This document shows, one piece after another, positions 14,243 to 63,549 of a stretch of DNA of 64,000 nucleotides. This DNA is from an uncultured Candidatus Saccharibacteria bacterium (GTDB taxonomy: Bacteria > Patescibacteriota > Minisyncoccia > Phycocordibacterales > UBA2100). The position numbers and the translations under genes were made by a program. A model generated the notes under the pieces. That model saw only the letters and a program-made list of their open reading frames with translations. It did no database searches and was not told where the DNA came from. The stretch is from NCBI GenBank assembly GCA_964654205.1, contig CAZZHR010000002.1, forward strand, positions 65,800 through 129,799. Reading direction: 5' to 3'. Each line of letters starts with the position of its first letter. The stretch's first letter is position 1.

Positions 14243-14901
14243 ACTTCGTCGAGCATTAATTCTCGGACTGTCGATTTCCGTGCGACGATGTCGTCGAAAG
14301 CGTCTTCAACGAAACGCTGGTACTCGCGCGCACTCTTGAAGTGCTCAAGGATTGTTGCCGTATCACACAATCCCCCGGTATCTGGCGAGAGGTACTCGGC
14401 ATAGCTACTATGCGGCCACTTTCGAGCGTCTCGCACAAGCTTCGCCACTTGGGGATTCACATGAATATAGGCCGAGAGGTGTTTGAGTTGCGTATCGTCT
14501 ACCACATGCACGGCCTTGATGCGATCCTGAAATACATGTCCCACATGATCGTACTTGCGATTGAAGTACATCGAGTAGCTCGTCAGTAGTTTCAGAAAAA
14601 GTTTACTAATCGATACATCTTTGTTCTGTCGTATGAGAAAATGGAAATGATTAGGCATAAGACAGTACACAGCAATCGAGAATGCATCTCTTTCGAATGG
14701 CTCGATGCGAATCTGGACGCGCTTCCCGCCGGTGTGCAAGGGCGCCCCTTGCACATCGCGACCGAGAGAGCGCATAAGTCGGTCTAGGAAAACTCGTGCA
14801 TCCTCATCATCTCGAAGGATGTCCATCTTGCCATTGCCGCGGCTGAAGAGGTGGTACCACTCTCCTGTCGAGAACTCTTTGTAGTCGCGTGAATTTGTCA
14901 T
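14239..14901 (-). CDS. tnpA: IS200/IS605-family Y1 HUH transposase (RAYT-like, Y1_Tnp)
   Basis: 'YHLFSRGNGK', HUH motif 'MPNHFHFLI', and C-terminal 'FQDRIKAVHVVDDTQLKHLSAYIHVNP...WPHSSY', the Y1 transposase signature. It carries a ~21-aa in-frame insertion encoded by the REP half-site. Confidence 0.65.
   Translation of the reverse strand: MTNSRDYKEFSTGEWYHLFSRGNGKMDILRDDEDARVFLDRLMRSLGRDVQGAPLHTGGKRVQIRIEPFERDAFSIAVYCLMPNHFHFLIRQNKDVSISKLFLKLLTSYSMYFNRKYDHVGHVFQDRIKAVHVVDDTQLKHLSAYIHVNPQVAKLVRDARKWPHSSYAEYLSPDTGGLCDTATILEHFKSAREYQRFVEDAFDDIVARKSTVRELMLDEV
14731..14756. repeat. Half-copy of the REP-like element (ggtgtgcaagggcgccccttgcacat) inside the transposase CDS
   Basis: Identical to one arm plus the centre of the 14164..14203 palindrome. 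It encodes 'RDVQGAPLHTGG' in frame. Confidence 0.75.
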
Positions 14902-14911
14902 ACTCGATTAG

Positions 14912-17900
14912 TCATCTAAAGCCCGTGGCAGCCGCGCCGAATACGACGAGCGAGCTGGTCGCATTGGTCGCGACAAATGAGACGAGGTCACATTGGTTGG
15001 CCGTCGTGGTGAGTGTCGGTGCGCTTCCACCCTGCCAGCGCACGACCGCTGGCCAGGTCAGTGTGCGGCTTCCCGTGCCGTCTTGGCACACCACGAGACG
15101 GAGGATTTGCCCCGCGATGAAATTGGAGAATGTAATCGTGCGGTTGCCGCCGAGTGTCACCTTCTGCTGGTTGCCTTCAAGCCAGTTGATAGCCACGGTC
15201 GCGCCGTCGGAGAGACTCCTTTCCACCGTGGTGATAGCGCCACCCGCACCCACCGCAAATTTCGCAAACGGCGTCGATGTACCCACACCCACGTTGCCGT
15301 TGGCGTTGATGACAAAGAGGGACTGCGCTGTGGTGGAAGCGACCTGTATGAAGTTGGTCGAGCTATCCTGCGTCTCTATCGTGAGCTTGGCCGCAGGGGT
15401 CGTGGTGCCGATTCCTGCCGCTGTCTCTACATAGAGCTTGCCCGCTCCAGTCGGCGACGTGGGGCAGCCGGATGCGCAGACAAGGAGGTTGTCGTCGGAG
15501 AGCAGAATGTTTTTGTTGGACGTGTGTATCGTAAGGTCGCCAGTCGAGTCCACTTGGAGCGAGGCGACCGTGGAATCATTGTACGAAATCGCTACCTGAG
15601 GATTCGCCGCTGCAGCCGTCACCGAGAACTTGCGGTACGGCGATGTGGTGCCGACACCGAAGAATCCGGCACTCGTGGCGCGCATCACCTCGGTGAGCGC
15701 GCCACTTTGCAGTGTCGAGAACACGAGGTCGCCCTTCCCGAGCCCGCCGAAGTTCTGTTGCAAGATGCTCGTGATTGCAGAAGTCGTCGTACCCGTGCCG
15801 GTGACATCGAGCGCGCGGAATGAGAGCCGCGATGCGGTCGATGTCGCGCTCGCCGCATTGGTGAGGTAGAGCTGGTCGGCGGTCGCGCCGGAAGATGTGT
15901 TGTAGACATCGAGCTTCGTGCCCGGCGTCGTCGTACCGATGCCGACATTGCCCGTGCTGGTGATGCGCATTCGCTCTTGGCTCGACTCATATCCACCAGT
16001 CCTAAACTGAATACTGTCGGAGCCGCCTGATGCAACATTCCCGTTGGTAAAGAGCACCAGACTAGTATTCGAACCGAAACTCGTGTTTCCGCCGAGACCG
16101 TATCCGACACCAGACCCGTACGCACGGAAGTAGCCTGTCGCAGTATCGCTATGTACAGTGTATGTGCTCTGACCATTGCTATTTGCATTCGTCACCGTGA
16201 CCCCGTCGACGCTCGCTACATTGCTGTACACAGTGAGTTTTGTAGACGGAGTCGTCGTCCCTACCCCCACGTTGCCGGTGTTTGTCACCGCAAAGAGCGA
16301 GCTCGTCGCGCTCGCGGTCGAGCTCGCTATCTCGAAGAGCATCGTATTGGTCTCGCCCGACAGTGCGTGCACTGAGAGCTTAGCCCACGGCGACGACGTG
16401 CCGATACCGAAGCGCGCATTGACCGTATCCCACGTGAGCGTACTCGACGCCGCCATCACGCCGCCGTAGTTGAATTGTATGTTGCCGTTGCCGCCTGCCG
16501 GAGCCGAGCCGCCGGATGCGAGGAGGGAGCCGGAGAAGTATGTGTAGACTGCCGAACCATCGACAGCTGTACCCGTTGAAAGCACCGCTGCTTCGAGATA
16601 GTCGGATGTTCCATTCATGTCGACAATGGTGGTTACTTGCGCCGCATCTGCACCACCCGATCGATAGGGACCGTTTGCTATCGCGACACCGTTCTTACGG
16701 ACAGCTGCCTGACAGTTGTTTGTGGTATTTGTACATCCAACAGACGCGACAACGATATACTTGCCGGCTACCGTAGGTGTGAAGCGGTTGGTCGTTAGGT
16801 CAAAATTGTTGTTGGTATCGTAAGTTTCAGTCGTCCAATCGACCACAAGTACCGTATCGCTCACAGTGGTTGTCGCCGACCCATTGCGATGCACATGGAA
16901 CGCTACCGTAGAAGAAGCGGTTCCAACCGTGCGGTTCGTGTAGACCTTGACCGCGAATCCGCCTGCGCCGCCTGCGCCGCCTGCGCCTCCAGTGCCCGCA
17001 TTTCCAGCGCTACCCCCGGAGCCAACGGTGAAATAGAAAGTCCCCGTCGGACTGCCTACAAGCTCGTACGCGTATCCTCCGCCTCCACCTCCGCCTCCAC
17101 TCCATACGTTGTTGAGATCATTGATTCCGCCGCCAGCCCCTCCTCCTCCGAACGCGTTGCCTGCGCCGCCTGCTGCCGTAGTACCCGCTCCGCCACCCCC
17201 ACCGCGGGCACCATTGCCCCCCGCTCCTCCCACTGCGTACAGATCTTGCGTCTCCCCACCATCCGCATCAATACCAAGCGTGAGTCCGCCTGCACCACCA
17301 ACGAGATTTACTTCGCCACCGGAGCCAGAACCGCCAGATGCCGCAGGCCCATTGGAGCCAGACCCACCGCCTCCGCCCGTCGCACTTAAGTGCGGAGAGG
17401 AGCATGCGACAGAATTGCTTCCGAAGCATGTCGTACCTCCTACGCCACCATTGCCGCCGTTGCCTCCACCGCCACCCCCTCCACCGCCGCCCCAAACCTC
17501 CACTTCTATATATGACGTATCGCTCGGGAGCGTGAGCGTGCCACCGGAGAAGCTCGGTGCGCTGCCGGGGTCTCCGGTGAAGACCACCGACGAGGTTCCC
17601 ACAGTGGAAGTCGCGTATGTTCCTATGAGCGTGTTGCCACCACCTCCGCCTCCACTCGAGCCGCTCCCCGTCCCCGCACACTGTCCGCTCGGGAGCAGGA
17701 AGCAGCCGCTCGTGAGTTGGACGCCACCCGCAAAGGTGGATGTTGCCGAGCCGGTGATATTGAGGAGTGTTGATTGAATGCCGCCAGAGAATGTTGTGGT
17801 GGAAGGCGACCCAAACGTCGCTGCGCCGGTGGATGCCGAGAACGAGAGCGCGGCTACCGTAGAAGTCGACGAGTGCGTCGAGGTGGCGAGGTAGAAGGTG

Positions 17901-20900
17901 CTGCCGATGTTGCGGAGTGTCCAGAGATTGCTGCCGAGCCCGTCCGAGAGCGCGAGCTGCGGACCTGTCGAGCTCGCGACCGTAAGAATATGGTACGGTG
18001 TCGTCGTACCGATGCCGAACGTACCGTTGAAATAGCCGAGACCGTTGTCGAGAATGCGGAAGCGCGTCGTCGAGGCGGAGTCGAAGAATTCCGTGAGTAT
18101 GCCCGTGCCCGTCCCAGATCCCTGCACTGAGAGCTTAGCCCACGGTGACGTGGTGCCGATTCCGACGTTGCCCGTCGAACCCTGAATGAGCATTCTCGTC
18201 GCGTAACTCCCGGCCGTTGCGTTGGCCTTGAAATGGAGGTCGCCATTGTTGCCCGTCTGCCCTATCTCCGCCCAGCCCGTGCCAGTACCCGCGCCGCCGG
18301 TCGTGAATATCATGCTGCCGACGTTGCCTGTACCGGCTCTGTTGAGGAAGAGTCGGAAGTCGCCCGACGTGTCAAAGGCCGCACTCGTACCGAAGACGTC
18401 GAGCTTACTCCCCGGCGTCGTCGTACCGATTCCCACGCTGCCGGTGCTCTTTACCGCCAAAAGGTCACCGCCGGATCCGCTCGATGAGTTGAGCTGCAAG
18501 AGGTCCGCGCTGGAACCGGTATGAAGACTTCCAACGATGACGGGCTTCGCGATGTCGTGCTCGTTGTAGATGTTGAAGATACCTGTAAAGGTCGGGGAGG
18601 TTTTGCCAAAACCGATCTCCCCCGTGGGACTGACGATGAAGGCGTTGACGCCGTCGGTCCTGTTCTGGAAGAAGAGCGCCCCAGCAGGAGTATTGCCGCT
18701 ATCCCCCGCGAGGAAGCCCCATTTCTTACCGCCGGAGTCCGTATTCTGGAGATTGAACCACGGATCGCTGCCGCTCACATGGAACTTCGCGTCGCTTGAA
18801 GCTGCGCCCACGCCGAGCAGACCCTGCACGAGTAGGTTACCTGTCGTCGTCGCGCCGCCTGAGATCGTGAGGCCGCCCGCCTGTGTGCCGTCGCCGATGG
18901 TGGAACTTGCTGTGACACCGAGGCCGCCAGTTACAGCGAGTGTGGTCCACGGACTTACGTTGCCGATACCGACACTTCCACCACCGCTTTGAAGGACGAG
19001 ATTATTCCATGCACCGGCACCGCTGCTCTGTGCGCTGAGTCCAAAATAAGTATTGCCCGTGCTCGCGCCCGACGCTACAAAGAGCACCGAACCGGCTGAA
19101 CCAGAGACCCAATCGCTCGTCGTTATCGCAAGTTGTGAAGGCGCATTACCGCCAGTAATTTGCAACTTACCGTTGGTCGGACTCGCCGTGCCGATACCGA
19201 AGTTGCCGCTGATGCGGTCGACGAAGACGAGCGGCGAGGAGGTACCGACGGTAAAGAGCGAGGTCGATGGCGGCGTCGATGTGCCGACGGCGAGACCGCC
19301 GGAGGCGATTGTGCTCGTCGCCGTCGTCGAAGTGGCGACGAAATATGAAGCGTCGACGAATGACGTAAAGCGAGCATTGCCACTAACGTGAAGCTTATAG
19401 GTGGGAGAGGTATTACCTATACCTACAGAGCCAGCTGTATTGAGGAACAATAAGTCTGTCGCCGCGGCGCCCGTGCTGATGGAAAATCCAGAGCTATCGT
19501 TACCACTGATTCCGACTTTCCATTCTGGAGTCGTACCGCTTCTGACAAAGCTGACATTCGGTGCCACATTTCCGTTTATCAAAATTCCTTGATACGTCGT
19601 TCCTGCAGTCACATGGAGTGGCTGCTGCGGATTTGTTGTTCCAATTCCAACCCGACCGCTTGGGTTCCAAATGCCGGAGCCCGGGAAGAATGCGGTGCCA
19701 GAGACAGAGAGCGCGGTTGAGGACGCATACGGGAACGTGGACGCTGCTGTGGTAGAAGTCGCAGTGAAGATTGGCGCGGTGATGGTGTTGTATGCGGTGA
19801 GTGCGCCGCGCAGGAGTGAGCTGCCCGCGACTGAGAGGTTTCCGCTTGAGTCGATGGTCGTCGTCGCGCTGCCGCCGAAGTACGCAGTGCCAAAGTTGGA
19901 GAAGTTAGTACTCGACGCATTCCCCGAGAATATCTGGAGCGCCGTCCAGTTGTTGGAGACACTTGTGTCCACGGAGCCCCCACCGCCCGTGATACAAGCA
20001 CCGTCTACGGCAAAGCATCCGTCGGCGAGGTTTATTCCATTGGCAAATGTGGTAGTAGCCGAGCCGGTAAAGGTAATATCGCTCAGCGTAGTCCCAGAAA
20101 GGGTACCGCCCGTAATCGTCGAGTCGGAGATATCGACGCTGCTGAGCTGATCGATTTTGTTTGTGTGCGCGACCGTCTGATACACATTGGTAATACTTGC
20201 CGACTGCGCTGTAGAGACACCGGCGACGAGGCTTGTGAGTCGCTGTTCCACGGCTGCGATCCGCGTATCGAGGTCGGCATCCGTGATGCCGCCGACAGAT
20301 GCAACTATGCGCTCGGTCTCGACGATACGTTCAACGACTCGTTCGTTTGTCACCACAGTCGATGTGCTCACAACAACAGGCGTTTGCTGCGATTGCGCTA
20401 CGATAACCTGTGCGCGTTCATACGGATCCATCGTGTCGATGAATCCCGCATCGAGCGGTGTAAGTGCGAGCGAGTTCGTCGCGTCACTCGGGAACACGAT
20501 GTTGTAGACGAACGTGTCGACGCTCGTGTTGACTGCCTTCGCGATGGTGCGCAGCGCATCAGGGAAGAAAGAAAGTGTCGCGCTCGATACTTGTGCGAGC
20601 GCGACCTCGGGATTCTCAACCGCATAGTACGTCGCATCACTCGCCGCGCGCACCGCGCGCGTCGCCACTTCATCAACTCGTACGAGCGACTGCGCGACGC
20701 TCGCCGCCATCTCGCGCGTAGTCTCCGCTGCAAACCGCGCATAGGCTGGGTCGACAAACGCATACGTGCCAAATGTCATGGTGAACGCAACGAGCATCGC
20801 GACAAACTTCTGCAGAAACTCCGTCGCGGGAGAAATCGTGTACACCGGCACGTGCACATGTGCGTGACTCAAAGTACGAGCAACCGCCTCGTGCACGCCC

Positions 20901-21349
20901 GACGGCGCCGCTGCGATAGACGGCATCGCGTGAGCGACCTTCGCGCTCTGCGCCACCGCCGCAGCCTTCAATTTTTCCTGCACATGCTTCGCGTGCGCCG
21001 CCAACGTCTTCGTCACAGGTATTTGTCCGCTCACAGAAAGGGCGCTCTCGACACTCTTTACACTTTCAGATTTCAACTTTATATCTTGTGGCTTATTCTC
21101 CACCCCGTGATATTCACGCACCCGTTCATCCGACAGCTGCTCCCTGCGGATGGTTTTCGCATGCTCTTGCTCCACGAGGTATTTTTGGAGCGAGCCCTCA
21201 TCGACGTACCAGTTCTTGCCGATTCTTCTACCGCGAAGCCTTCCATCACGGCAAAGACGAGCGATGTAGTCGCGAGAGAGCCCTGCACTGGATGAAGCAT
21301 CCCCGGCCGAGAGGTGCTTCTGCCCGTCGAAATATATTTCGTTGCTCAT
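14912..21349 (-). CDS. Giant (about 2146 aa) membrane-anchored surface fibre protein: N-terminal HTH_17-like domain – TM helix – Gly/Ser/Thr-rich tail-fibre-like repeats
   Basis: Start trimmed to 'MSNEIYFDGQKHLSAGDASSSAGLSRDYIARLCRDGRLRGRRIGKNWYVDEGSL' (excisionase/HTH_17-like). TM helix 'FVAMLVAFTMTFGTYAFV'. At least 14 repeats of 'VGIGTT.P..KL.V'. Poly-Gly block 'YIEVEVWGGGGGGGGGG'. Antisense Arg-rich ORFs are artefacts. Confidence 0.75.
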   Translation of the reverse strand: MSNEIYFDGQKHLSAGDASSSAGLSRDYIARLCRDGRLRGRRIGKNWYVDEGSLQKYLVEQEHAKTIRREQLSDERVREYHGVENKPQDIKLKSESVKSVESALSVSGQIPVTKTLAAHAKHVQEKLKAAAVAQSAKVAHAMPSIAAAPSGVHEAVARTLSHAHVHVPVYTISPATEFLQKFVAMLVAFTMTFGTYAFVDPAYARFAAETTREMAASVAQSLVRVDEVATRAVRAASDATYYAVENPEVALAQVSSATLSFFPDALRTIAKAVNTSVDTFVYNIVFPSDATNSLALTPLDAGFIDTMDPYERAQVIVAQSQQTPVVVSTSTVVTNERVVERIVETERIVASVGGITDADLDTRIAAVEQRLTSLVAGVSTAQSASITNVYQTVAHTNKIDQLSSVDISDSTITGGTLSGTTLSDITFTGSATTTFANGINLADGCFAVDGACITGGGGSVDTSVSNNWTALQIFSGNASSTNFSNFGTAYFGGSATTTIDSSGNLSVAGSSLLRGALTAYNTITAPIFTATSTTAASTFPYASSTALSVSGTAFFPGSGIWNPSGRVGIGTTNPQQPLHVTAGTTYQGILINGNVAPNVSFVRSGTTPEWKVGISGNDSSGFSISTGAAATDLLFLNTAGSVGIGNTSPTYKLHVSGNARFTSFVDASYFVATSTTATSTIASGGLAVGTSTPPSTSLFTVGTSSPLVFVDRISGNFGIGTASPTNGKLQITGGNAPSQLAITTSDWVSGSAGSVLFVASGASTGNTYFGLSAQSSGAGAWNNLVLQSGGGSVGIGNVSPWTTLAVTGGLGVTASSTIGDGTQAGGLTISGGATTTGNLLVQGLLGVGAASSDAKFHVSGSDPWFNLQNTDSGGKKWGFLAGDSGNTPAGALFFQNRTDGVNAFIVSPTGEIGFGKTSPTFTGIFNIYNEHDIAKPVIVGSLHTGSSADLLQLNSSSGSGGDLLAVKSTGSVGIGTTTPGSKLDVFGTSAAFDTSGDFRLFLNRAGTGNVGSMIFTTGGAGTGTGWAEIGQTGNNGDLHFKANATAGSYATRMLIQGSTGNVGIGTTSPWAKLSVQGSGTGTGILTEFFDSASTTRFRILDNGLGYFNGTFGIGTTTPYHILTVASSTGPQLALSDGLGSNLWTLRNIGSTFYLATSTHSSTSTVAALSFSASTGAATFGSPSTTTFSGGIQSTLLNITGSATSTFAGGVQLTSGCFLLPSGQCAGTGSGSSGGGGGGNTLIGTYATSTVGTSSVVFTGDPGSAPSFSGGTLTLPSDTSYIEVEVWGGGGGGGGGGNGGNGGVGGTTCFGSNSVACSSPHLSATGGGGGSGSNGPAASGGSGSGGEVNLVGGAGGLTLGIDADGGETQDLYAVGGAGGNGARGGGGGAGTTAAGGAGNAFGGGGAGGGINDLNNVWSGGGGGGGGYAYELVGSPTGTFYFTVGSGGSAGNAGTGGAGGAGGAGGFAVKVYTNRTVGTASSTVAFHVHRNGSATTTVSDTVLVVDWTTETYDTNNNFDLTTNRFTPTVAGKYIVVASVGCTNTTNNCQAAVRKNGVAIANGPYRSGGADAAQVTTIVDMNGTSDYLEAAVLSTGTAVDGSAVYTYFSGSLLASGGSAPAGGNGNIQFNYGGVMAASSTLTWDTVNARFGIGTSSPWAKLSVHALSGETNTMLFEIASSTASATSSLFAVTNTGNVGVGTTTPSTKLTVYSNVASVDGVTVTNANSNGQSTYTVHSDTATGYFRAYGSGVGYGLGGNTSFGSNTSLVLFTNGNVASGGSDSIQFRTGGYESSQERMRITSTGNVGIGTTTPGTKLDVYNTSSGATADQLYLTNAASATSTASRLSFRALDVTGTGTTTSAITSILQQNFGGLGKGDLVFSTLQSGALTEVMRATSAGFFGVGTTSPYRKFSVTAAAANPQVAISYNDSTVASLQVDSTGDLTIHTSNKNILLSDDNLLVCASGCPTSPTGAGKLYVETAAGIGTTTPAAKLTIETQDSSTNFIQVASTTAQSLFVINANGNVGVGTSTPFAKFAVGAGGAITTVERSLSDGATVAINWLEGNQQKVTLGGNRTITFSNFIAGQILRLVVCQDGTGSRTLTWPAVVRWQGGSAPTLTTTANQCDLVSFVATNATSSLVVFGAAATGFR

Positions 21350-21649
21350 GAGCGATGATGCCTGTGGCCGGACGCACGATTTATCTAATATTCTACTACT
21401 CTTTTCGCCAATTGGACGTGTATCGGACACTATTACGTGTGGACAAGCCTAAGCAGAATTTGTACCGGACATTTTTTACATTTTTTCCCACAAGTTCGTA
21501 TCAACGCACAAAAAATTCTCCGTTTTTTTGAAAAAAAGCCTCTTCACTACAACCTCTCACCTCTTACCTACCCCCCTCCTCCCGGCCGACTCGGGCATCC
21601 GAGGAGCGACGTAGAGCGGTATTCCGCGCGTGTGTGGCGCAGAAAATGA

Positions 21650-21695: not shown

Positions 21696-22697
21696 TCAGC
21701 GCGAATAGCGTACTTCTTTGCTCACGATGGCTTCCAGAAGGTCGATGAGTACTTCGAGGCCACTCGCTGCATTTGCGGTCATGGTCTCAACCGCGCCAAC
21801 ATCTGCCGCCTCGAACATTGCGTAAAGTGATTCACTCTTGATCGACGCAAAGCCATACGACATCACGATGACCACGGTGAGAGCCACGCCCGCTTTTATC
21901 GCCAAAGACTTAGACATTCCGGGCATCCGTCCACGTCGCATGGGTGCCGTCTTGGCCACTGCATGCGGCACAGCACCTGCACGAGCCCGCGTCTCAACAA
22001 TGCGAATCAGTACAGCATTCGGAAGCGGCTCCAACGCCGCGCTTCGCACTTCATCATTCGCCACCGTTTTCACGTCGGCTGTCGCATTTTGAGTGTCGCC
22101 CTTCAGCTGAGGTTTGTTCACCATTGGCATAAGATGCTTCTCGTCCCGGATGTAGGTGTAGTACGAGGTAGGCCTCTCATCTGATCTCAGCCCTTGAGGC
22201 ACATTACTCGGTGCCGGTCGTACCAGGCCTACTGCATCCGCCTGGACTGCAGCGAGAAGCGAATCTTTCTGGGATTTATGCGTCAAAAGGCCGTTTCTCT
22301 CGACATACCAGCGATTCCCTATTTGCCGAGAGAGTATTTTGCCGGCCCGAGCGAGCTGACCAATGTAGTCAGGATTGTAGCCTGTCATTTTCGCGGCCTT
22401 TGCCGCCGAGACATAGTCCTTGCCATCGAAGGTAATGAGTGTGTCGGCTGCGTCCACAGGCCGTATAGGGGCTTCTGGTGGCCTTGGGACGAATGAATCA
22501 GCATTGCGCTTGTACGCTTCGAGTGAGGCAGGATTCACGTACCAGAGCCCGCCTACGCGCTGCGCGTCGATGACTCCACCGCGCGCAAGCTGGCCGACGT
22601 AGTCCTGCGCGTAGCCGTATTCCTTTGCCGCGCGCTTCGAAGATATATATGTCGTTCCGCCGAGATATAGCTGATCTGCCATGATGCAAGTATACAA
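21696..22697 (-). CDS. Membrane-anchored protein with two tandem HTH_17-like domains and a C-terminal TM helix (paralogue of the giant protein's N-terminus)
   Basis: 'ISSKRAAKEYGYAQDYVGQLARGGVIDAQRVGGLWYV' and 'VSAAKAAKMTGYNPDYIGQLARAGKILSRQIGNRWYV' (excisionase-type HTH). TM 'LAIKAGVALTVVIVMSYGF' near the C-terminus. Confidence 0.55.
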   Translation of the reverse strand: MYTCIMADQLYLGGTTYISSKRAAKEYGYAQDYVGQLARGGVIDAQRVGGLWYVNPASLEAYKRNADSFVPRPPEAPIRPVDAADTLITFDGKDYVSAAKAAKMTGYNPDYIGQLARAGKILSRQIGNRWYVERNGLLTHKSQKDSLLAAVQADAVGLVRPAPSNVPQGLRSDERPTSYYTYIRDEKHLMPMVNKPQLKGDTQNATADVKTVANDEVRSAALEPLPNAVLIRIVETRARAGAVPHAVAKTAPMRRGRMPGMSKSLAIKAGVALTVVIVMSYGFASIKSESLYAMFEAADVGAVETMTANAASGLEVLIDLLEAIVSKEVRYSR

Positions 22698-27786: not shown

Positions 27787-28437
27787 CTATCGTTCTCCCA
27801 AACCGAAGTGCACTCGCAAGGGTTTATCGTACTCGATTGCGTCCGCAATAATGTATCTCACCTCCGTTCGCAGCGATGCGTCTAGCTTCAGAAGCGTTAT
27901 GATTTCTTCACAATCATACGGGTGCACCCATACGCTGTTTTGCAATCGGTGAAAACCAAGTCTCTTTAATATTTCGCGTACACGATCTCGCGTAGAGCGC
28001 CGCGCATGCGGAATGTCGAATATCACGACTCGCCAACGTCCGTCCCATCGACGCGGCCTAGGTATTTCTACGGCCGAAAGCCGGATGCGTTCCGCATGTG
28101 ACTTTCCCCTCTCCGTCAGTATGGGGTAACGTTTGCCCGAGTGCCGCATAAACTCGACCATCCCTTTTTTCTTCAATCTCGAGAGTGTCTCCCGCAGCCT
28201 CTGCGTGGGCTGCGGGGGCAGGATTACATCAAGGTGTTCTCTTTTGATGAGCGCAGCGACTTTCGGCGCCATCACCGCTACCGTGAGAATTCCTCCGAGA
28301 GCGAGCGTACCTATCACAGCTCTTTCTATCGATCCGCGTCTCAACCGCAGACGAACTCCACTCTCCTGGGATACGCGCGATTCTTGCTCACGCCTCTTCT
28401 GGGTATTCTGTTTTTGCCGCATGAGTGCATTGTACAA
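27787..28437 (-). CDS. PaaX-like winged-helix regulator with C-terminal Cas2/VapD-like domain
   Basis: N-terminal 'RLRETLSRLKKKGMVEFMRHSGKRYPILTERGK' (PaaX-type wHTH, 'YxLTxxG'). C-terminal 'WRVVIFDIPHARRSTRDRVREILKRLGFHRLQNSVWVHPYDCEEI' matches the Cas2 core pattern (vvvYDI..rRR..v.k.L..yG.RvQnSVF). No cas1 or CRISPR nearby. Confidence 0.5.
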   Translation of the reverse strand: MYNALMRQKQNTQKRREQESRVSQESGVRLRLRRGSIERAVIGTLALGGILTVAVMAPKVAALIKREHLDVILPPQPTQRLRETLSRLKKKGMVEFMRHSGKRYPILTERGKSHAERIRLSAVEIPRPRRWDGRWRVVIFDIPHARRSTRDRVREILKRLGFHRLQNSVWVHPYDCEEIITLLKLDASLRTEVRYIIADAIEYDKPLRVHFGLGER

Positions 28438-57238: not shown

Positions 57239-57275
57239 GTGTTGAAGCGTACAGTGTGTCGTTACAAAAGCAAAG

Positions 57276-57302
57276 TCGCCGTTTTCTCAAACGGCGACTT
57301 GT
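57276..57302 (-). terminator. Hairpin aagtcgccgtt-ttctcaa-aacggcgactt with UUUUG on minus strand
   Basis: 11-bp stem. Downstream of the 57371 gene and upstream of the UXS start. Confidence 0.45.
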
Positions 57303-57370
57303 AACATGTGTCGTTCACTGGCCGCGGAGCTTGCGAATCTCGTCGGAAGTAAGCCCGAGGTCGCTCGGCG

Positions 57371-57868
57371 TCACCACGCCGCTCGCGAGCACATCGTTGC
57401 GTAGGTGGTCGAGCGCATGATCGGGCTCGGCCCAGACTCGCTCGCGGTGATGCGAACGAACTCCATAGCATGCGCAATCACCGCTGCGCGAAAATACGCG
57501 TCCACGACCTGCTTGGGCATGCCGATGTCAGCGTAGCTCAGGCCTTTCCGCAGTAGATCGTCGAGTTCGCGCCGCCCATGATGCGGATATTCGCCCGGAA
57601 GGGTCTGCCACCGATAGATGCAGTAGCGTACGCTGAAGATGTTCGCGCGCTTGCGAGCGCTCTTCAGCATCGTCTGCGTCACCCTGGTGCCGTCACCGAG
57701 GGTTACGACATGACCGTCCTCGATGAGCCGCGAGAAATCTTCGATGAAGTCGGGCATCTTCAGTGTAAACCAGTTCGACCTCTCCGTTGGCCAGAACCCT
57801 TCGCCGGTCGAAAGGAGCTCTTCGAGCTCTTTCGTGTTGTGTCGTGGTCGCAGTTTGGTGACGCTCAT
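57371..57868 (-). CDS. Hypothetical protein (165 aa)
   Basis: Only ORF filling this gap on the gene-bearing strand. No motifs recognised. Confidence 0.35.
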   Translation of the reverse strand: MSVTKLRPRHNTKELEELLSTGEGFWPTERSNWFTLKMPDFIEDFSRLIEDGHVVTLGDGTRVTQTMLKSARKRANIFSVRYCIYRWQTLPGEYPHHGRRELDDLLRKGLSYADIGMPKQVVDAYFRAAVIAHAMEFVRITASESGPSPIMRSTTYATMCSRAAW

Positions 57869-57927
57869 CTGCGCCTCCCGGTTGCCAATACTCCTACCAT
57901 TATACCACGAATGCCAGACTCAAGCAA

Positions 57928-59136
57928 CTACACCGTATCCTCAACGATGCCCCACTCGCCCTGCCGCTTCCGGCGCACCGCCATCACAGCGCCACCAGTG
58001 AGGAGCGCGAGTGCGACGGGAGCAAACCACCACATGCTCATGCCGAACGATGCGCTTGCGGCAGCGACGGTAGGACGCACCACATCCGTGGCCGATTCTG
58101 GTACCACCTCCACCGCTTCAGTTTCCTCGTCGGGGGCAGCGGGAGAGAGTTGCACGGACGCGCGAGATGCGGGCTTAGGCGCTACACTCGACTGCACCGC
58201 TTGGAATTCGCTCGGCGAGGGCGCTGACGCTGGCGCACTCTGTGTGGGCGCATCACCCGCTTTCATCGCGAGTACGCCGTTGGGGTACGCGAGCTCCGCC
58301 TCCGCTCCTGCAAAAAAGCCGAGTGTTTTCGGAGATACCCGCATCGACGAGCCGGCAAGAATGAAGGAGTTGTCGGGCAGAAGAAATTCGCGCATGAATG
58401 CGCGAATAATCCATGAGGATAGGTCGAGATCTCGATCTGCATGGTTCTCGATTATCACGCTTCCGTCGGACTCAGCGCGAAACGCCAGCCGCGCTGGTTC
58501 TGCTGTGACGACGATACGGTCGCTTGCGGACTCAATGTCCTTAGCAACGGAGAGCACGACGACGTATTTCCCAGGGTACTCATAGTGGTGCGTCACGGTC
58601 GCACCTTCTGCCGTACCCCCATCGCCGAAGTTCCAGTTGAACCGCACATTGTCGAGGGGCTCCTTCTTCTTATTGTAGGCGCGTGCGCGATACGTCGTGT
58701 GCGCACCGACGATGACGACTCTGTCCTCGCCCGCGTCGACGAAGACTGAGGGGTCTGGCGGCGCTACGTATGACGAGACGGGTGCAATCTGCTGTGTCGT
58801 CGCTGTGGTCTGGGTATTCGTCGACTGAGTAGTGGTCGTGCTGGTGTCGGTTCCCGATGTTGTCTGTGCTTGTGATGATCCTCCTGGAGCTTCGCCGACG
58901 GTGATGAGATGTTTAAAATTGTCGAAAGTCGACGGTCCGATGCCATTGACATTGATGATGTCCTCAATTGTCGCGAAGGGGCCGTTCGTCGTCCTGTAAT
59001 CGATTATTCTCTGGGCCAAGGTAGGCCCAATGCCCGGGAGAGTATCGAGCGTTGCGAGGTCCGCCGTGTTGATATTGATGAGCGCATGCGCCGGGAGCGG
59101 CGCAAGAAGCAATATGAGTGCGACAAGCCATCGCAT
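57928..59136 (-). CDS. ComEA-like helix-hairpin-helix DNA-binding protein with PKD domain and C-terminal TM anchor
   Basis: Signal peptide 'MRWLVALILLLAPLPAHA', then 'ININTADLATLDTLPGIGPTLAQRIIDYR...FATIEDIINVNGIGPSTF' (ComEA HhH). PKD-like 'RFNWNFGDGGTAEGATVTHHYEYPGKYVVVLSV'. C-terminal TM 'WWFAPVALALLTGGAVMAV'. Confidence 0.65.
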   Translation of the reverse strand: MRWLVALILLLAPLPAHALININTADLATLDTLPGIGPTLAQRIIDYRTTNGPFATIEDIINVNGIGPSTFDNFKHLITVGEAPGGSSQAQTTSGTDTSTTTTQSTNTQTTATTQQIAPVSSYVAPPDPSVFVDAGEDRVVIVGAHTTYRARAYNKKKEPLDNVRFNWNFGDGGTAEGATVTHHYEYPGKYVVVLSVAKDIESASDRIVVTAEPARLAFRAESDGSVIIENHADRDLDLSSWIIRAFMREFLLPDNSFILAGSSMRVSPKTLGFFAGAEAELAYPNGVLAMKAGDAPTQSAPASAPSPSEFQAVQSSVAPKPASRASVQLSPAAPDEETEAVEVVPESATDVVRPTVAAASASFGMSMWWFAPVALALLTGGAVMAVRRKRQGEWGIVEDTV

Positions 59137-59198
59137 GCACGGTATTATGCGACACGAATCAATGAGAGAGTGTTTGACTATTGAATCGCTGTGGATTC

Positions 59199-61079
59199 TC
59201 AGTTAACACCCTTGTCCTTTGTATCGCCGCCGTTGACGACGCGCTGGAGCACTTGGTTGGATACTTCAGGATTCGCTTGTGACCGCTCCCCGGCGTGATT
59301 CTGTTGCATCTCTGTAGGCTTTTGATGCGGCGTCGCATGGCGAGGACCGCCCTGAGACTTATCAAAGCGTTGCTCACCCCGGCCATGATTGTGGTGCGGC
59401 TGGTGGTCGCGCGACTGCTGTTTATGCGCCTGCTTATCGCGCAATAGCTCGAGCGGCGAGCGAGCGGGTGCTTGAGCTGATGAAATACCCTCGGCACGTG
59501 CCTTTTCTATCGCGTCGCGAAGAGAGTTCCGTCCCGCCTCGGCGCGAGGTTGGGTTGTCACCTGCTCGCGCCGCGGCTCCACCCTGGCAATGGTCGGCTG
59601 CAGTACGGGCGCAGGCGCAGGTGACGGGCGCGACTCGCGCAATCTCTCTGCCGGAGAGATGCTCGGGGGAGGTGTAAAGCCACCATTCGGCCGATAGTCG
59701 CGCCGTTCTTTTTTTTCTTTTGGCGGCGGGATGAACTCTTCTTGCTTAGATTTTATGAGCTCCTCTATCTTCGCCCTTGGTACGCCGAAGGCGTGTCGCG
59801 ACGACATGATGACATCGTCGCGGTATGTGATGTTGGGCGGCTCAATAGGCGGTATGGTCTCTGCCGAAAAGGGCGGCGAACCCACACCATCTATCATGAG
59901 CGTGAGGTAAATCTGCCCGAGGCCGAGATTCACGAGGTCCTCCGGTTCGAACGTGGGCTGGAAGACAGTCTCGAGAACTTCCGCGTCGAATGGACCCACC
60001 CGGAAGACAATGAGCGTGCCGACGTTGCCGAAGACCGCGTCGCGGACTTCCTCTTCCATCTGCTCGATGTACTGGTTGGCCAGCGTGAGCGCGAGCTTGT
60101 ACTTGCGGGATTCTGAGAGAATATCGGCGAATGCCTCGTTCATCATCGACTGGAATTCGTCGACATAAAAGTAGAAGCGAGGCAGTTTCGCAAGACGCAT
60201 CGGCGGTTCGTCTGCACGCGACATCGCAGCAAGGTAAATCTTGACGGTGAGCGCCGAGCCGAGGAGAGAGGCGTTCGTCTCGCCCATGCGTCCTTTTGAG
60301 AGATTGACGATGAAGATTTTCTTCTCATCCATCACTTTGCGCAAATCGAAGGAAGATTTTGCCTGGCCTACAATGTTGCGAATGAGAGGGTTTGAGACGA
60401 ATTGGCCGATTTTGTTCTGGATTGCCGGCAGAGCTTCGCGTGTGTATGTGTCGGTAAAATTCGCAAATTCCTCCACCCAGAACGCTTTGACGATAGGGTC
60501 TGAAACCTTTTCAAGCACCGCATTGCGATACGTTTTGTTGATGAGCATGCGGTTCACGTCGAGCAGCGTCGAGCCTGGATACTCGAGGAGTGCGAGCAGA
60601 GTGTTTTGCAAGATATACTCCATGCGGGCGCTCCACGCGTCCACCCAGATGCGTTTGAGTGCCCCCATGAGACCGGAGACGACGAGGTGCCGCTTGTCAT
60701 ACCCCACGTCCTCCATCACGTTGAATCCAAGGGGGTATTCGGTATCAAACGGCGCGAAGTAGATGACATCACTGATACGCTCCTGCGGGATGAAATCGAG
60801 GAGCTTTTCGGCGGTCGAGCCGTGGGGGTCGATAAAGGCGATGCCTTCCCCATTTTGAATATCCTGAATCGCCATGTTCTCGAGCATGGTCGATTTGCCC
60901 ATGCCGGTCTTGCCGATAACATAGATATGCTTTCCGCGGTCTATCGCGCGGATACCGAACATTTCCCTCTTTCCCCGCGTGTGCGTCGATGCGAAGTAGG
61001 TGATTCGCCTATCGTCGTCGAACTGGTCAGGGTGGGGCTTGTGCTCGCCTGAAGCGTGACTGTCGTGGTGCTCAGACAT
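59199..61079 (-). CDS. VirD4/TraD/TraG-family (type IV coupling protein-like) P-loop ATPase with long disordered C-terminal tail
   Basis: Walker A 'IGKTGMGKST', Walker B 'FYVDEF', and 'LTLANQYIEQM...GNVGTLIVFRVGPFDAEVL' resembling the TraG-D_C Q-motif region. C-terminal about 200 aa is P/Q/R/H-rich. Confidence 0.55.
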   Translation of the reverse strand: MSEHHDSHASGEHKPHPDQFDDDRRITYFASTHTRGKREMFGIRAIDRGKHIYVIGKTGMGKSTMLENMAIQDIQNGEGIAFIDPHGSTAEKLLDFIPQERISDVIYFAPFDTEYPLGFNVMEDVGYDKRHLVVSGLMGALKRIWVDAWSARMEYILQNTLLALLEYPGSTLLDVNRMLINKTYRNAVLEKVSDPIVKAFWVEEFANFTDTYTREALPAIQNKIGQFVSNPLIRNIVGQAKSSFDLRKVMDEKKIFIVNLSKGRMGETNASLLGSALTVKIYLAAMSRADEPPMRLAKLPRFYFYVDEFQSMMNEAFADILSESRKYKLALTLANQYIEQMEEEVRDAVFGNVGTLIVFRVGPFDAEVLETVFQPTFEPEDLVNLGLGQIYLTLMIDGVGSPPFSAETIPPIEPPNITYRDDVIMSSRHAFGVPRAKIEELIKSKQEEFIPPPKEKKERRDYRPNGGFTPPPSISPAERLRESRPSPAPAPVLQPTIARVEPRREQVTTQPRAEAGRNSLRDAIEKARAEGISSAQAPARSPLELLRDKQAHKQQSRDHQPHHNHGRGEQRFDKSQGGPRHATPHQKPTEMQQNHAGERSQANPEVSNQVLQRVVNGGDTKDKGVN

Positions 61080-61087
61080 ACGGGAAG

Positions 61088-61194
61088 TATACCCCGTGAG
61101 ATAGGCGCTCCTCCGGTCTTTAATGCAAATTGGAGCAAAGCAGGATCGACCATGTTTCTAGGCTCACCCCGCACGCATATCTCACGGGGTATAC
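61088..61194. repeat. 17-bp perfect inverted repeats (gtataccccgtgagata ... tatctcacggggtatac) separated by 73 bp, plus adjacent hairpin 61196..61222
   Basis: Verified by reverse complement. Lies in the 5' leader/promoter region of the ATPase gene. Confidence 0.7.
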
Positions 61195-61220
61195 CAAGAA
61201 GCGTCCCTCAGGGACGCTTC

Positions 61221-62489
61221 TTATTGCGCCGAGAGCGCCTGTTTCAAGCTGCTGTATCGATTCGCGGGATCCCAGAAGTACCACGAGGTGAGCCCTGCGT
61301 CGTACGTTGCGCGTGTCTGGTCGAGGATGTCTTGCGCGGTATACGTCTTGCCGTAATTAAAATCCTGCAGCCACGGGCGCAGCATCTTGGGGTCATACAC
61401 CGGTTTCTCGTACACTGCCGGCGTCGACGTGCCGATACGCGTAAAGGCGAGCGACGGGACGGTCGTCGTGGGCGCTTTGAGTCGCCGCACCGCTTCGGCC
61501 ATGGATTGGTACACGACTTTGTACGGGTCACTGTTCGGGTCACTCAGTCCTGCAAAGCCCTTGTTGTAGTGCGATGGGTACACCATGGGCGCGATGTAGT
61601 CGAAATATGGAAGCGCGCGCTCGAGCTGTTGGCCGATACCGAGGTCGTCGGTGAGCACGGTCGTGTAGCCAAAGAGGTCTGCGCTCATGACCGGCACGTG
61701 GCCGCCGTGGTGCGCCGTATCAAATCCCTTTACTTGCTTGTGGAGATACGAGAAGAATTTCTCCAGCTCGCCTGCCCGGTCTGTCGAGGGATAGACGATG
61801 TCGCTCATGACGCCGTCGGATGGCCAACGGACGTAATCGTAATTCAGTTCGTCGAAGCCGAGCTCGTAGCTCTCTCGGCTAAGCTCCACAATGTAGTCCC
61901 AGTGCGGCTCCGAATTGACCGCGATAAATGAGAGGCCCTTGTGGTCTTTCCATGGCTCACCGGGCCGCGCCTTCGACTGCACCGCTCGCTCAGGATGCAC
62001 CTTCGACATGAAGGGGTCTTGGAACACCGTGATGCGTCCTATCACGTAGATTCCTTTTTCATGGAGCGTCGCGATGAACTCGCGCATATCGCCCGCTCCG
62101 CACTTGGCGGCATCCCACGCTGGTTTCAATTCCTCACTCTCGGGCTTGAACGCGATGGTACCTGAGTAATCTTTTATATCGATAACGACCGCGTTGAGCT
62201 TCGTCGAGTCCAAGAGTTCTACAAGGGTGTTGCGGAGCGAGGGCGTCCCCACGGCGCACTGCGTCATGTATATCGCGTACATGGGCTCCGGCGCGGCCAC
62301 GTGACTTACGCGCGCCTTCGGAGCCTCGGGAATCACCACCTTCGGCGTACTGGTCGCACCAGCGCGGATAAATTCTGCCGACGGATTAGAGAGAGAAATG
62401 AACACGCCCGCCGCAACGACGGCGGGTGCCGCGATGCCGAGGAAAACGACGCCTATCCTCGACGCGCTCGTTCGTTTAGAGCTGGACAT
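61221..62489 (-). CDS. Putative TIM-barrel glycoside hydrolase (GH114/DUF4015-like) with N-terminal TM anchor
   Basis: TM 'IGVVFLGIAAPAVVAAGVFI', then 'LNAVVIDIKDYSGTIAF...GIYVIGRITVFQD...DELNYDYVRWPSD'. Start chosen at 'MSSSKRT' (the ORF-track start at 62543 overlaps the next gene). Confidence 0.45.
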   Translation of the reverse strand: MSSSKRTSASRIGVVFLGIAAPAVVAAGVFISLSNPSAEFIRAGATSTPKVVIPEAPKARVSHVAAPEPMYAIYMTQCAVGTPSLRNTLVELLDSTKLNAVVIDIKDYSGTIAFKPESEELKPAWDAAKCGAGDMREFIATLHEKGIYVIGRITVFQDPFMSKVHPERAVQSKARPGEPWKDHKGLSFIAVNSEPHWDYIVELSRESYELGFDELNYDYVRWPSDGVMSDIVYPSTDRAGELEKFFSYLHKQVKGFDTAHHGGHVPVMSADLFGYTTVLTDDLGIGQQLERALPYFDYIAPMVYPSHYNKGFAGLSDPNSDPYKVVYQSMAEAVRRLKAPTTTVPSLAFTRIGTSTPAVYEKPVYDPKMLRPWLQDFNYGKTYTAQDILDQTRATYDAGLTSWYFWDPANRYSSLKQALSAQ

Positions 62490-62724
62490 GCTCGTGACGC
62501 GGTTGCGAGACGTTCTCGGTTTCTGGTCGGCGCGGATTCTCAATGTGGCCGTACCTCCTGCGCACTACGATGCCGAGCGCGATGACGAAAACGCCAACAG
62601 CAAAGAAAATCCACGTGTCCCAGGTGTTGGGAAAGCCCAAAAAAGGAAGTGCTGCGACGAGGACGCCGGAGAGCATGATGAGCGCATCGAGTGTCATGTG
62701 GCCTAGTATATAGCCACGCGGCAT
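62476..62724 (-). CDS. Small hypothetical membrane protein (2 TM)
   Basis: 82 aa, 'LIMLSGVLVAALPFLGF' and 'IFFAVGVFVIALGIVV'. Confidence 0.35.
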   Translation of the reverse strand: MPRGYILGHMTLDALIMLSGVLVAALPFLGFPNTWDTWIFFAVGVFVIALGIVVRRRYGHIENPRRPETENVSQPRHEHVQL

Positions 62725-62823: not shown

Positions 62824-63549
62824 TTATGCCGAGGACTGCGGCTCGATGATGACGACAAATTCTCCCCGCTCGGCCTTGCGCTTCTTCAGGTCTGCGGCGA
62901 GTTCTTTCGGCGTACCAGAGAGCATTTCTTCATGGAGTTTCGTGAGCTCGCGACCGATGTGCACTTTGCGAACTTTTACCACCTCAAGCTCCGAGAGGAG
63001 CTTCTGAATGCGGTGAGGCGACTCGAAAAGTACGACCGGGATGCCGCCCTGTGGTGAGCCTGGTCGAACCATCGCGGCGACTCTTTTTACAAATGTCTGA
63101 CGTCCTTTTTTGTGCGGCGCGAATCCAAGGAATGCGAACTCCGGCGACGCAAGCCCTGCAATCGAGAGCGCCGCGGTGAGCGAGCTTGGCCCTGGGATTG
63201 CGTCGACGAGTCCGCCGCCCTCGCGCACAAGTGCGACGAGGCGCGCGCCGGGGTCGGATATGCCCGGCGTCCCCGCGTCCGACACGTAGACCACATGCTC
63301 ACCGCTGAGCACGCGCTCGAGCACTTCTTTCGACTTCTTGCCCTCCATCGCCGCATCGAGTCGCTGGAGCGATTTTCTGATGCCATAGTGTGCGAGCAAC
63401 TTCGACACGACACGCGTGTCTTCTGCGTAGATAACACTGCACTCTTTCAAGTTCCACAGCGCCCGGAATGTGATATCGCCCATGTTGCCGATGGGCGTGG
63501 CGACGATAGAGAGTTTCCCCTGCTCGGTCTCCCTTGAGACTTCGTTCAT
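62824..63549 (-). CDS. rsmI: 16S rRNA (cytidine1402-2'-O)-methyltransferase
   Basis: Tetrapyrrole-methylase fold, 'LSIVATPIGNMGDITFRAL', 'YAEDTR', 'SDAGTPGISDPG'. Confidence 0.85.
   Translation of the reverse strand: MNEVSRETEQGKLSIVATPIGNMGDITFRALWNLKECSVIYAEDTRVVSKLLAHYGIRKSLQRLDAAMEGKKSKEVLERVLSGEHVVYVSDAGTPGISDPGARLVALVREGGGLVDAIPGPSSLTAALSIAGLASPEFAFLGFAPHKKGRQTFVKRVAAMVRPGSPQGGIPVVLFESPHRIQKLLSELEVVKVRKVHIGRELTKLHEEMLSGTPKELAADLKKRKAERGEFVVIIEPQSSA

Follow-up and report, generated by a model that had tools for sequence, protein, structure and literature searches.

The 64 kb stretch of DNA analysed here (contig CAZZHR010000002.1, hereafter the window) carried on its minus strand two adjacent genes, the first encoding an ATPase of the VirD4/TrwB type, resembling the coupling proteins of type IV secretion systems (T4CPs and T4SSs), and the second a surface protein with one membrane anchor. 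As far as sequence comparison tells, the locus is a two-gene operon of a Kaiserbacteria-type member of the Paceibacteria (Patescibacteria), operon-like by its spacing; the adjacency of the pair is not accidental; and the constant element of the surface protein is its anchor with the cytoplasmic tail, the DNA-binding tip being a minority specialisation of one sub-lineage. We tentatively suggest, as the best of several explanations, that the coupling-type ATPase, which is membrane-less, is docked or positioned by the tail of its membrane partner.

Both open reading frames (ORFs) named in the original prediction were present on the minus strand, at 59199-61079 and 57928-59136. The ATPase gene is transcribed first and the surface-protein gene second, and no terminator was detected in the 62 nt spacer between them (59137..59198). 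The original prediction had rightly put both genes on the same strand but had placed the ATPase 60 bp downstream, while it lies upstream in the direction of transcription. The best homologues came from Candidatus Kaiserbacteria and Paceibacterota (Parcubacteria), which makes the organism a Patescibacterium. About 40 of the 51 ORFs of the window were scanned, and no relaxase, VirB, T4SS, comEC, comF or pilus genes were revealed among them, in line with the earlier view that the pair is not a conjugative relaxase system. Two sets of loci were used for comparison. The GTDB set comprised 80 loci of species representatives (L001-L080), fairly close relatives with ATPases 62-88% identical, and the statistics on the pair rest on about 65 of them having enough downstream sequence. 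The metagenome set comprised another 80 loci with ATPase identities of 47-85%, for which the scan was seeded by distant homologues.

The ATPase gene (59199..61079, minus strand, as for all features given below) encodes 626 aa. Its core, residues 22-450 (59730..61016), is a P-loop nucleotide-binding domain that an all-alpha domain interrupts. Walker A (GKTGMGKS, residues 56-63, 60891-60914) and Walker B (YFYVDEF, residues 303-309, 60153-60176) were invariant across alignments A1 and A3, and the whole core was nearly invariant in A1; core identity was 78-91% to the 79 other GTDB species loci and 47-85% to the diverse metagenome loci. The Pfam models TrwB_AAD_bind, T4SS-DNA_transf and TraG-D_C each scored above their curated cut-offs, the HerA/DUF87 model scored below its cut-off, and the protein did not qualify as VirB4 by the combination of a VirB4 N-terminal domain and C-terminal ATPase. 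The FtsK model gave no match, and an FtsK-like identity was rejected. When a profile of 41 diverse homologues was compared with solved structures, TrwB (2.3e-7) and DotL (3.4e-6) were the best matches, followed at a distance by HerA (1e-3). An AlphaFold2 model was built on a diverse alignment (34 close homologues alone gave a predicted local distance difference test score, pLDDT, of 48.7), and in the predicted fold helices 127-237 are inserted into a Rossmann-like core, the overall shape being TrwB-like. Judged by these profiles and the predicted fold, the ATPase falls within the FtsK/HerA superfamily, in its VirD4/VirB4 branch, and is closest to the coupling proteins.

There was no hydrophobic segment in the ATPase (the top 19-residue Kyte-Doolittle mean was 1.27), and only about 55 residues precede Walker A. 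The basic C-terminal tail, residues 451-626 (59202..59729), has a pI of 10.5, low complexity and 53% small or polar residues, and the pLDDT of its 176 residues is below 50 save for two short conserved helices, 519-529 and 608-616; it ends in EVSxxxLQRVVNG. The original prediction of a VirD4/TraD-like ATPase with TraG-D_C motifs and a long disordered tail was therefore borne out by Pfam, fold and pLDDT, and among VirD4/TrwB, FtsK and HerA the best matches were of the TrwB/DotL type, so that the protein is not clearly HerA/FtsK-like. Family-wide, the otherwise unalignable tails were found to end in (K)E[VI][SP]xExLxK[IV]L(E/N)G (window 59202-59260; L081-L160), and some members end instead in IKPGExIKF or bear a CxxC...CxxC zinc ribbon (zf_Tbcl_2).

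The top library match of the ATPase was mad8 of the MADS defence in PADLOC, with 58.9 bits versus 33.9 for the best Pfam coupling-protein model, a hint that mad8 is itself of this T4CP-like branch. A role as part of an anti-phage defence, related to MADS or to HerA/DptH-type modules, seems very improbable. The ATPase gene has no further mad, dnd or dpt genes beside it and is surrounded by rsmI, the DUF4015 gene, glycan genes and that of the surface protein; it holds one conserved chromosomal position and is near-invariant across species, unlike patchy, fast-moving islands; and PADLOC gave no match for the partner or for the DUF8128 protein that accompanies the ATPase in other lineages.

The second gene (57928..59136) encodes a type I, C-terminally anchored surface protein of 402 aa. 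It begins with a Sec signal peptide MRWLVALILLLAPLPAHA (residues 1-18, 59083..59136) with an AHA cleavage motif, recognised by inspection, and a core Kyte-Doolittle mean of 2.19. A ComEA-type double helix-hairpin-helix module, (HhH)2, follows as the swappable distal tip (residues 19-80, 58897..59082; HHH_3 and TIGR00426), then a Thr/Gln/Ser-rich linker with 88% small or polar residues (residues 81-125, 58762-58896), a PKD domain (residues 134-211, 58504..58737; PKD_4 4e-13, PKD 3e-10) and a third ectodomain (residues 212-300, 58237..58503), which an acidic linker separates from the membrane helix. The conserved C-terminal anchor (57931..58035), which matches a family consensus, is composed of the membrane helix WWFAPVALALLTGGAVMAV (57976-58035), which RRKRQ follows, and a 15-residue cytoplasmic tail RRKRQGEWGIVEDTV (57931-57975). 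The topology proposed earlier, inverted relative to ComEA, is confirmed by the signal peptide, the N-terminal HhH and the C-terminal anchor; the earlier domain order of signal peptide, HhH, PKD and C-terminal membrane helix also stands, except that it had overlooked the third ectodomain. A sortase-type signal was considered for the C-terminus and rejected: there is no LPXTG, the basic patch is followed by an acidic EW[DN]I[IV]EE, and the NCBIfam LAVTG model gave 18.6 bits against a cut-off of 27.

The HhH module matched HHH_3 (PF12836) at 7e-21 with 74.6 bits (cut-off 27) and the ComEA HhH-repeat model TIGR00426 with 59.6 bits (cut-off 53.1). The full-length ComEA model TIGR01259 reached 67.5 bits versus its cut-off of 152.35, with the match confined to residues 17-80, and the term "ComEA homologue" would hold for one domain only. 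The third ectodomain goes with PKD in every PKD-bearing relative and is probably a divergent lamin-tail domain (LTD). Pfam LTD (PF00932) gave no match in the window protein; it did match a second stretch in homologues, and in L007 a weak match (E 0.006) fell exactly on the third ectodomain. Because hhalign of this domain against LTD was weak (probability 8.8%, with only the motif xExxNxxxxxxDLSxW aligned), we name it only LTD-like.

In 62 of the roughly 65 GTDB loci, the ATPase gene was followed on the same strand by that of a partner with a signal peptide and a membrane helix. Regardless of the ectodomain, its anchor followed the consensus ...SQVAAA...WWLGA(TM)...RRxGKK-EW[DN]I[IV]EE, where TM is the transmembrane helix. 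A six-frame search of 1.57 Mb gave 62 matches to membrane helix plus tail, all of them on the ATPase strand, one per locus, 0.7-2.3 kb past the ATPase stop codon and none elsewhere; the anchor profile (A2) gave only three matches in a set of 5.8 billion proteins. From the ATPase stop to the partner start the median gap was -4 nt, with overlap in 25 of 47 pairs and a gap of at most 100 nt in 38 of them. The linkage survives the insertion of a PaaX/Cas2-like gene (L003, L006) and of an IS200-type transposase gene (L055, L166). The PaaX_M/Cas2-like proteins between the two genes have 192-216 aa (L003:4634-5212 and L006:7937-8515). The same two Pfam domains are encoded elsewhere in the window (27787-28437), and an IS200-type Y1 transposase gene lies at 14239-14901.

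The ectodomains varied on this fixed anchor. Among the 62 complete partners we found LTD-PKD-LTD-like (25), LTD alone (22), Ig-like-PKD-LTD-like (8), HhH-PKD-LTD-like (6) and PKD-LTD-like (1), the tips thus being lamin-tail in 47, Ig-like in 8 and HhH in 6. The HhH-bearing loci are those whose DUF4015 neighbour most resembles that of the window, and therefore one sub-lineage is indicated. The ComEA-like module does not define the pair, since only 6 of 62 partners, in a single sub-lineage, bear the HhH tip.

We may picture the pair as follows. The product of the first gene is a cytoplasmic ATPase of the coupling family which lost its N-terminal membrane domain or never had one. The product of the second gene is a Sec-exported single-pass protein with a swappable ligand-binding tip on a stalk of PKD and lamin-tail-like domains. 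Its cytoplasmic tail might recruit the ATPase ring to the membrane or position it there, and by this route an event at the cell surface could be tied to an ATP-driven step in the cytoplasm. Tail docking is proposed because the tail motif is the sole conserved cytoplasmic feature of the co-translated neighbour in the clade of the window; no other feature is shared by all the ectodomain architectures. With its (HhH)2 tip, the ligand captured in the sub-lineage of the window would probably be double-stranded DNA; the tips of most relatives are lamin-tail, a domain that is often found fused to extracellular nucleases and proteins binding nucleic acids, or Ig-like. DNA could not pass through a single helix, and a channel encoded elsewhere would be needed for any transport. 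Contact between the two proteins, the ligand and the direction of any transport are inferred. On Gram-positive plasmids there is precedent for membrane-less T4CPs that depend on a small membrane protein encoded next to them, as in TraJ/TraI of pIP501 and the TraG-TraJ pairs (PMC7434980), and lamin-tail domains were found in a large nuclease and nucleic-acid-binding protein of putative DNA-degradation loci (PMC8289736).

Several observations weigh against tail docking. All 80 GTDB loci are fairly close relatives and the whole block rsmI-DUF4015-ATPase-partner-epimerase-glycosyltransferase is syntenic, so the linkage is partly shared ancestry. No co-variation was found of partner type or tail presence with the N-terminus or the C-terminal motifs of the ATPase. 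The canonical tail is limited to the closest sub-clade, and the partners in L091, L093 and L094 have other short tails; in about half of the distant clade-A metagenome loci (L082, L083, L087, L089, L090, L092) a glycosyltransferase or another gene lies downstream instead. One locus (L086) has a DUF8128 gene upstream and an LTD protein gene downstream. As to DNA as the ligand, the HhH domain keeps both GIG hairpins and has a net charge of -4, and it reads GIGPTLAQRII where the closest HhH relatives have GIGPSKAQAV or GIGPAKAQAI, the Lys after GIGP being missing; canonical ComEA binds DNA through a basic surface and lysines beside the hairpins. Finally, Southlakia epibionticum is reported to have a non-essential T4CP homologue (PMC12102498).

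The conserved block also bears on a more ordinary explanation. The genes upstream of the pair encode a DUF4015 glycoside-hydrolase-like protein (61221-62543) and then RsmI (62824-63549); downstream come an orphan ORF of 165 aa and a glycan gene cluster of about 25 kb (about 33.5 to 57.2 kb) with epimerase, glycosyltransferase, aminotransferase, flippase and Wzy-type genes. In such a setting the ATPase could be the usual coupling protein of a Patescibacteria monoderm-type T4SS encoded elsewhere, whose components are VirB4, VirB3, VirB6, VirB8 and TrsD, and the surface protein could simply co-travel or be its adhesin, the latter variant being modelled on Gram-positive conjugation loci. We regard this as rather unlikely, though much is consistent with it: the synteny and the bordering glycan cluster, the fold and profile matches pointing to T4CPs, the homologues on Bacillus plasmids that lie in transfer operons, and the finding that Patescibacteria T4CP genes are mostly far from virB4, with 148 of 5,713 homologues near it (PMC12102498). 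The Ig-like tips together with the adjoining glycan cluster would also fit a plain adhesin. What speaks against this explanation is that the two genes overlap at their start and stop codons and stay linked despite insertions, that the tail motif occurs as a single copy and only beside the ATPase gene, and that a core identity of 78-91% between species far exceeds that of usual T4SS parts.

The original prediction had read the pair as a dedicated DNA-uptake module, in which a ComEA-like receptor catches extracellular DNA and the ATPase pulls it in for nucleotides or for transformation. Patescibacteria are unable to make nucleotides. The (HhH)2 domain is of genuine ComEA type, T4CPs, the type to which the ATPase belongs, are DNA-dependent motors, the pair is linked as in an operon, and no relaxase or T4SS gene was found among the scanned ORFs; all of this agrees with uptake. 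So do the lamin-tail tips of the relatives, which are compatible with nucleic-acid binding (PMC8289736), the precedents for FtsK/HerA-superfamily ATPases in import, namely CedB and CedD in Sulfolobales (PMC11868833) and ComB in H. pylori (PMC12857230), and the dispensability of comEC for growth of Southlakia, which leaves room for a second route (PMC10633639). Nevertheless, we consider a dedicated uptake module unlikely, and the claim was not sustained in its original form. Ig-like tips and LTD-plus-anchor forms (8 and 22 of 62) outnumber the six HhH forms, and HhH is not the defining tip; no channel gene (comEC, virB6) lies close by, and the partner crosses the membrane with one helix; the HhH module is acidic; conservation of the ATPase family reaches well past the pair, to loci where it has other neighbours; and the NCBIfam CedD model matched the P-loop only (21.3 bits, cut-off 600). 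Besides, known T4CPs export DNA, and to our knowledge no importing T4CP is known. DNA import by the pair is thus possible and far from shown.

A bolder form of tail docking may be mentioned, which we think improbable: the pair might be an unrecognised trans-envelope device in which a receptor with modular tips is wired by its tail to a motor, and the HhH and lamin-tail forms capture extracellular or host DNA and drive it inwards, alone or through ComEC or a VirB6-like channel. Such a device, if true, would explain thousands of orphan T4CP genes in nucleotide auxotrophs, with a direction opposite to conjugation.

Beyond the closest relatives, the ATPase family was very large, with 20,859 clusters at 50% identity (E <=1e-3) and 5,663 at E <=1e-30. 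LTD-PKD partners persist, with tails that depart from the canonical one, in metagenome loci at ATPase identities of about 58-68% (L086, L091, L093, L094, L110). A different pattern held at 49-61% identity, where the gene immediately upstream of the ATPase gene on the same strand encodes a protein of about 430 aa that bears an N-terminal membrane helix. This gene is -1 to 80 nt from the ATPase gene in most loci and is usually preceded by that of a sigma70-r4/HARE-HTH (helix-turn-helix) protein. The name DUF8128 (PF26449) for the 430 aa protein was taken from a precomputed Pfam annotation and a UniRef title; searches of NCBIfam, of PDB sequences and of a local copy of Pfam revealed no relatives. 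The three-gene module of HTH, DUF8128 and ATPase occurred in many other Patescibacteria (L101-L141 and L161, e.g. L161:6931-11008), with phosphoglycerate kinase and similar genes downstream of the ATPase, and many homologues are long forms (among them P0186, P0187, P0192, P0197, P0205, P0221) with the DUF8128 domain fused ahead of the ATPase. Neither tblastn nor a subsequent hidden Markov model search found DUF8128 in the window or in L001-L080. Because L086 carries both proteins, the partner does not simply replace DUF8128. From these arrangements, reliance on a separate or fused anchor appears to be a trait of the ATPase family, which speaks for tail docking.

The same breadth may be read in another way, namely that the ATPase is a housekeeping motor acting on the cell's own DNA in segregation, repair or nucleoid organisation, replacing an FtsK/HerA-type enzyme, with the neighbour being irrelevant. 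The extreme conservation of the core (78-91%) in a very large and apparently chromosomal family, the constant module with a sigma70-r4/HARE-HTH DNA-binding protein in other lineages, and the zinc ribbon on some members are in favour of it, and even so we find it quite unlikely.

Among plasmid relatives, the nearest annotated one was a 412-aa "DUF87" protein in a Bacillus transfer operon, where a conjugal transfer protein and a member of the relaxase family are encoded as well, and this relative fits a coupling-protein origin of the ATPase. Relatives from outside the Patescibacteria included tandem double-ATPase proteins of about 1200 aa (P0194, P0234, P0263), one of them with an extra C-terminal domain. 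A 395-aa copy, 40% identical, was encoded on a Sulfitobacter plasmid (L163, NZ_CP081110.1, 99994-101181), flanked by transposase and recombinase genes; this alphaproteobacterial plasmid is non-mobilizable.

Among known systems, the pair resembles the pIP501-type membrane-less T4CPs (PMC7434980), in which a VirD4/TrwB-type ATPase also has a membrane-protein neighbour in an operon. It differs from them in that no conjugative operon, relaxase or mating pair formation gene surrounds it among the window ORFs scanned, and in that its partner, a large surface protein exported by Sec, ends in one membrane helix with a cytoplasmic tail of 15 residues, where theirs is small and polytopic. Moreover, the window gene is chromosomal, apparently core and very highly conserved, and the contact of its product with the partner is a putative one. 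The canonical T4CPs TrwB (R388), VirD4/Cagbeta and DotL are among the closest known systems of the ATPase, which unlike them has no N-terminal transmembrane domain and is unlinked to relaxase or VirB genes among the window ORFs scanned. ComEA has an N-terminal anchor in Gram-positives and is soluble and periplasmic in Gram-negatives. The window protein shares with it a (HhH)2 with two GIG hairpins that is extracytoplasmic and membrane-tethered, but in comparison with Bacillus ComEA the topology is inverted, PKD and LTD-like domains are added and the domain is acidic; the gene is also not linked to comEC, comF or pilus genes among the scanned ORFs, and HhH is one of at least three interchangeable tips. 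CedB and CedD (PMC11868833) are likewise FtsK/HerA-superfamily ATPases, experimentally needed for DNA import and acting with no relaxase; unlike the window ATPase, they belong to the HerA/VirB4 type and have membrane helices as well as VirB4-like N-domains. No CedA-like channel is present in the window.

The window ATPase is evidently one of the orphan VirD4-type T4CP homologues described by Quinonero-Coronel et al. (2025, PMC12102498), being chromosomal with no virB4 nearby. That study counts the orphan T4CPs and reports how far from virB4 they lie, leaving open what they do; a term search of it gave no mention of ComEA, the lamin-tail partner and the conserved tail not being among the terms searched. 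A literature search on DUF8128 found nothing. Within the literature searched, the ATPase family is already known, while the partner relationships appear to be new. In Southlakia, the only genetically tractable species, comEC is required for transformation and not for growth (PMC10633639).

The intergenic region ahead of the ATPase gene (61080..61220) had been described as an inverted-repeat-rich leader. The structure is real (minimum free energy of -76.6 kcal/mol, z = -6.6), but a conserved regulatory element was not confirmed, since the region is made up of a local insertion and a terminator-like hairpin of the DUF4015 gene. This hairpin (61198-61220, GAAGCGTCCC-TGA-GGGACGCTTC) lies directly 3' of the DUF4015 stop codon and is common to the closest relative L165. 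The palindromic insertion of about 102 nt (about 61087-61188; arms 61178-61195 and 61086-61103) has inverted ends, CCCGTGAGATA ... TATCTCACGGG, with GGTATAC duplicated at the ends; it is lacking in L165, which is 93% identical and has only 39 nt between these genes. A conserved RNA element in the leader was considered and rejected: Rfam gave no match in the leader, a structured leader (z < -3) was found in only 9 of 79 relatives, and the insertion is missing in L165.

A TATACT box is located 6 nt ahead of the ATPase ATG. The arm TATCTCACGGGGT together with TATACT-like bases, with an ATG 6-9 nt later, recurred in nine other loci, preceding the ATPase gene as well as unrelated genes and often having an inverted copy 40-75 nt upstream (L002:1539-1614, L005:5977, L022:2559, L028:5926, L007:2005, L010:2800, L017:4478, L165:111). 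For a 13-mer there were 10 matches versus about 0.05 expected by a rough estimate. Judged by these recurrences, the palindromic element is a recurring promoter-proximal element and not a specific regulator of this operon. The arrangement hints that the element is mobile or reused close to promoters, and that the transcripts are leaderless.

Another insertion, of about 670 nt, lies between the surface-protein and epimerase genes (about 57239-57927) and is also missing in L165. It contains the orphan ORF of 165 aa (57371-57868, minus strand), which has a TTGCTT-N17-TATAAT box to itself as well as a terminator hairpin; the ORF had no tblastn match in the 80 related loci and no Pfam or NCBIfam match, and a faint methyltransferase match was given by PADLOC (E 0.002). 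Elsewhere, at 10115-21430 on the minus strand of the window, the IS200-like gene sits between two giant ORFs. The longer (2172 aa) gave only a weak HTH_17 match, the shorter (1375 aa) contains a SPRY domain and DUF7483 repeats, and a 333-aa HTH_17 protein is encoded beside them (21696-22697).

Together with its relatives, the locus offers the orphan ATPases concrete partners: a tail-anchored surface protein in one large clade, and DUF8128 with an HTH protein in others. Should the tail not dock the ATPase, the pair would still be a useful marker operon, and its tip swapping a clear example of domains shuffled over a constant anchor. Were the tail to dock the motor, these bacteria would have a simple two-protein link from the cell surface to an ATP-driven DNA motor.

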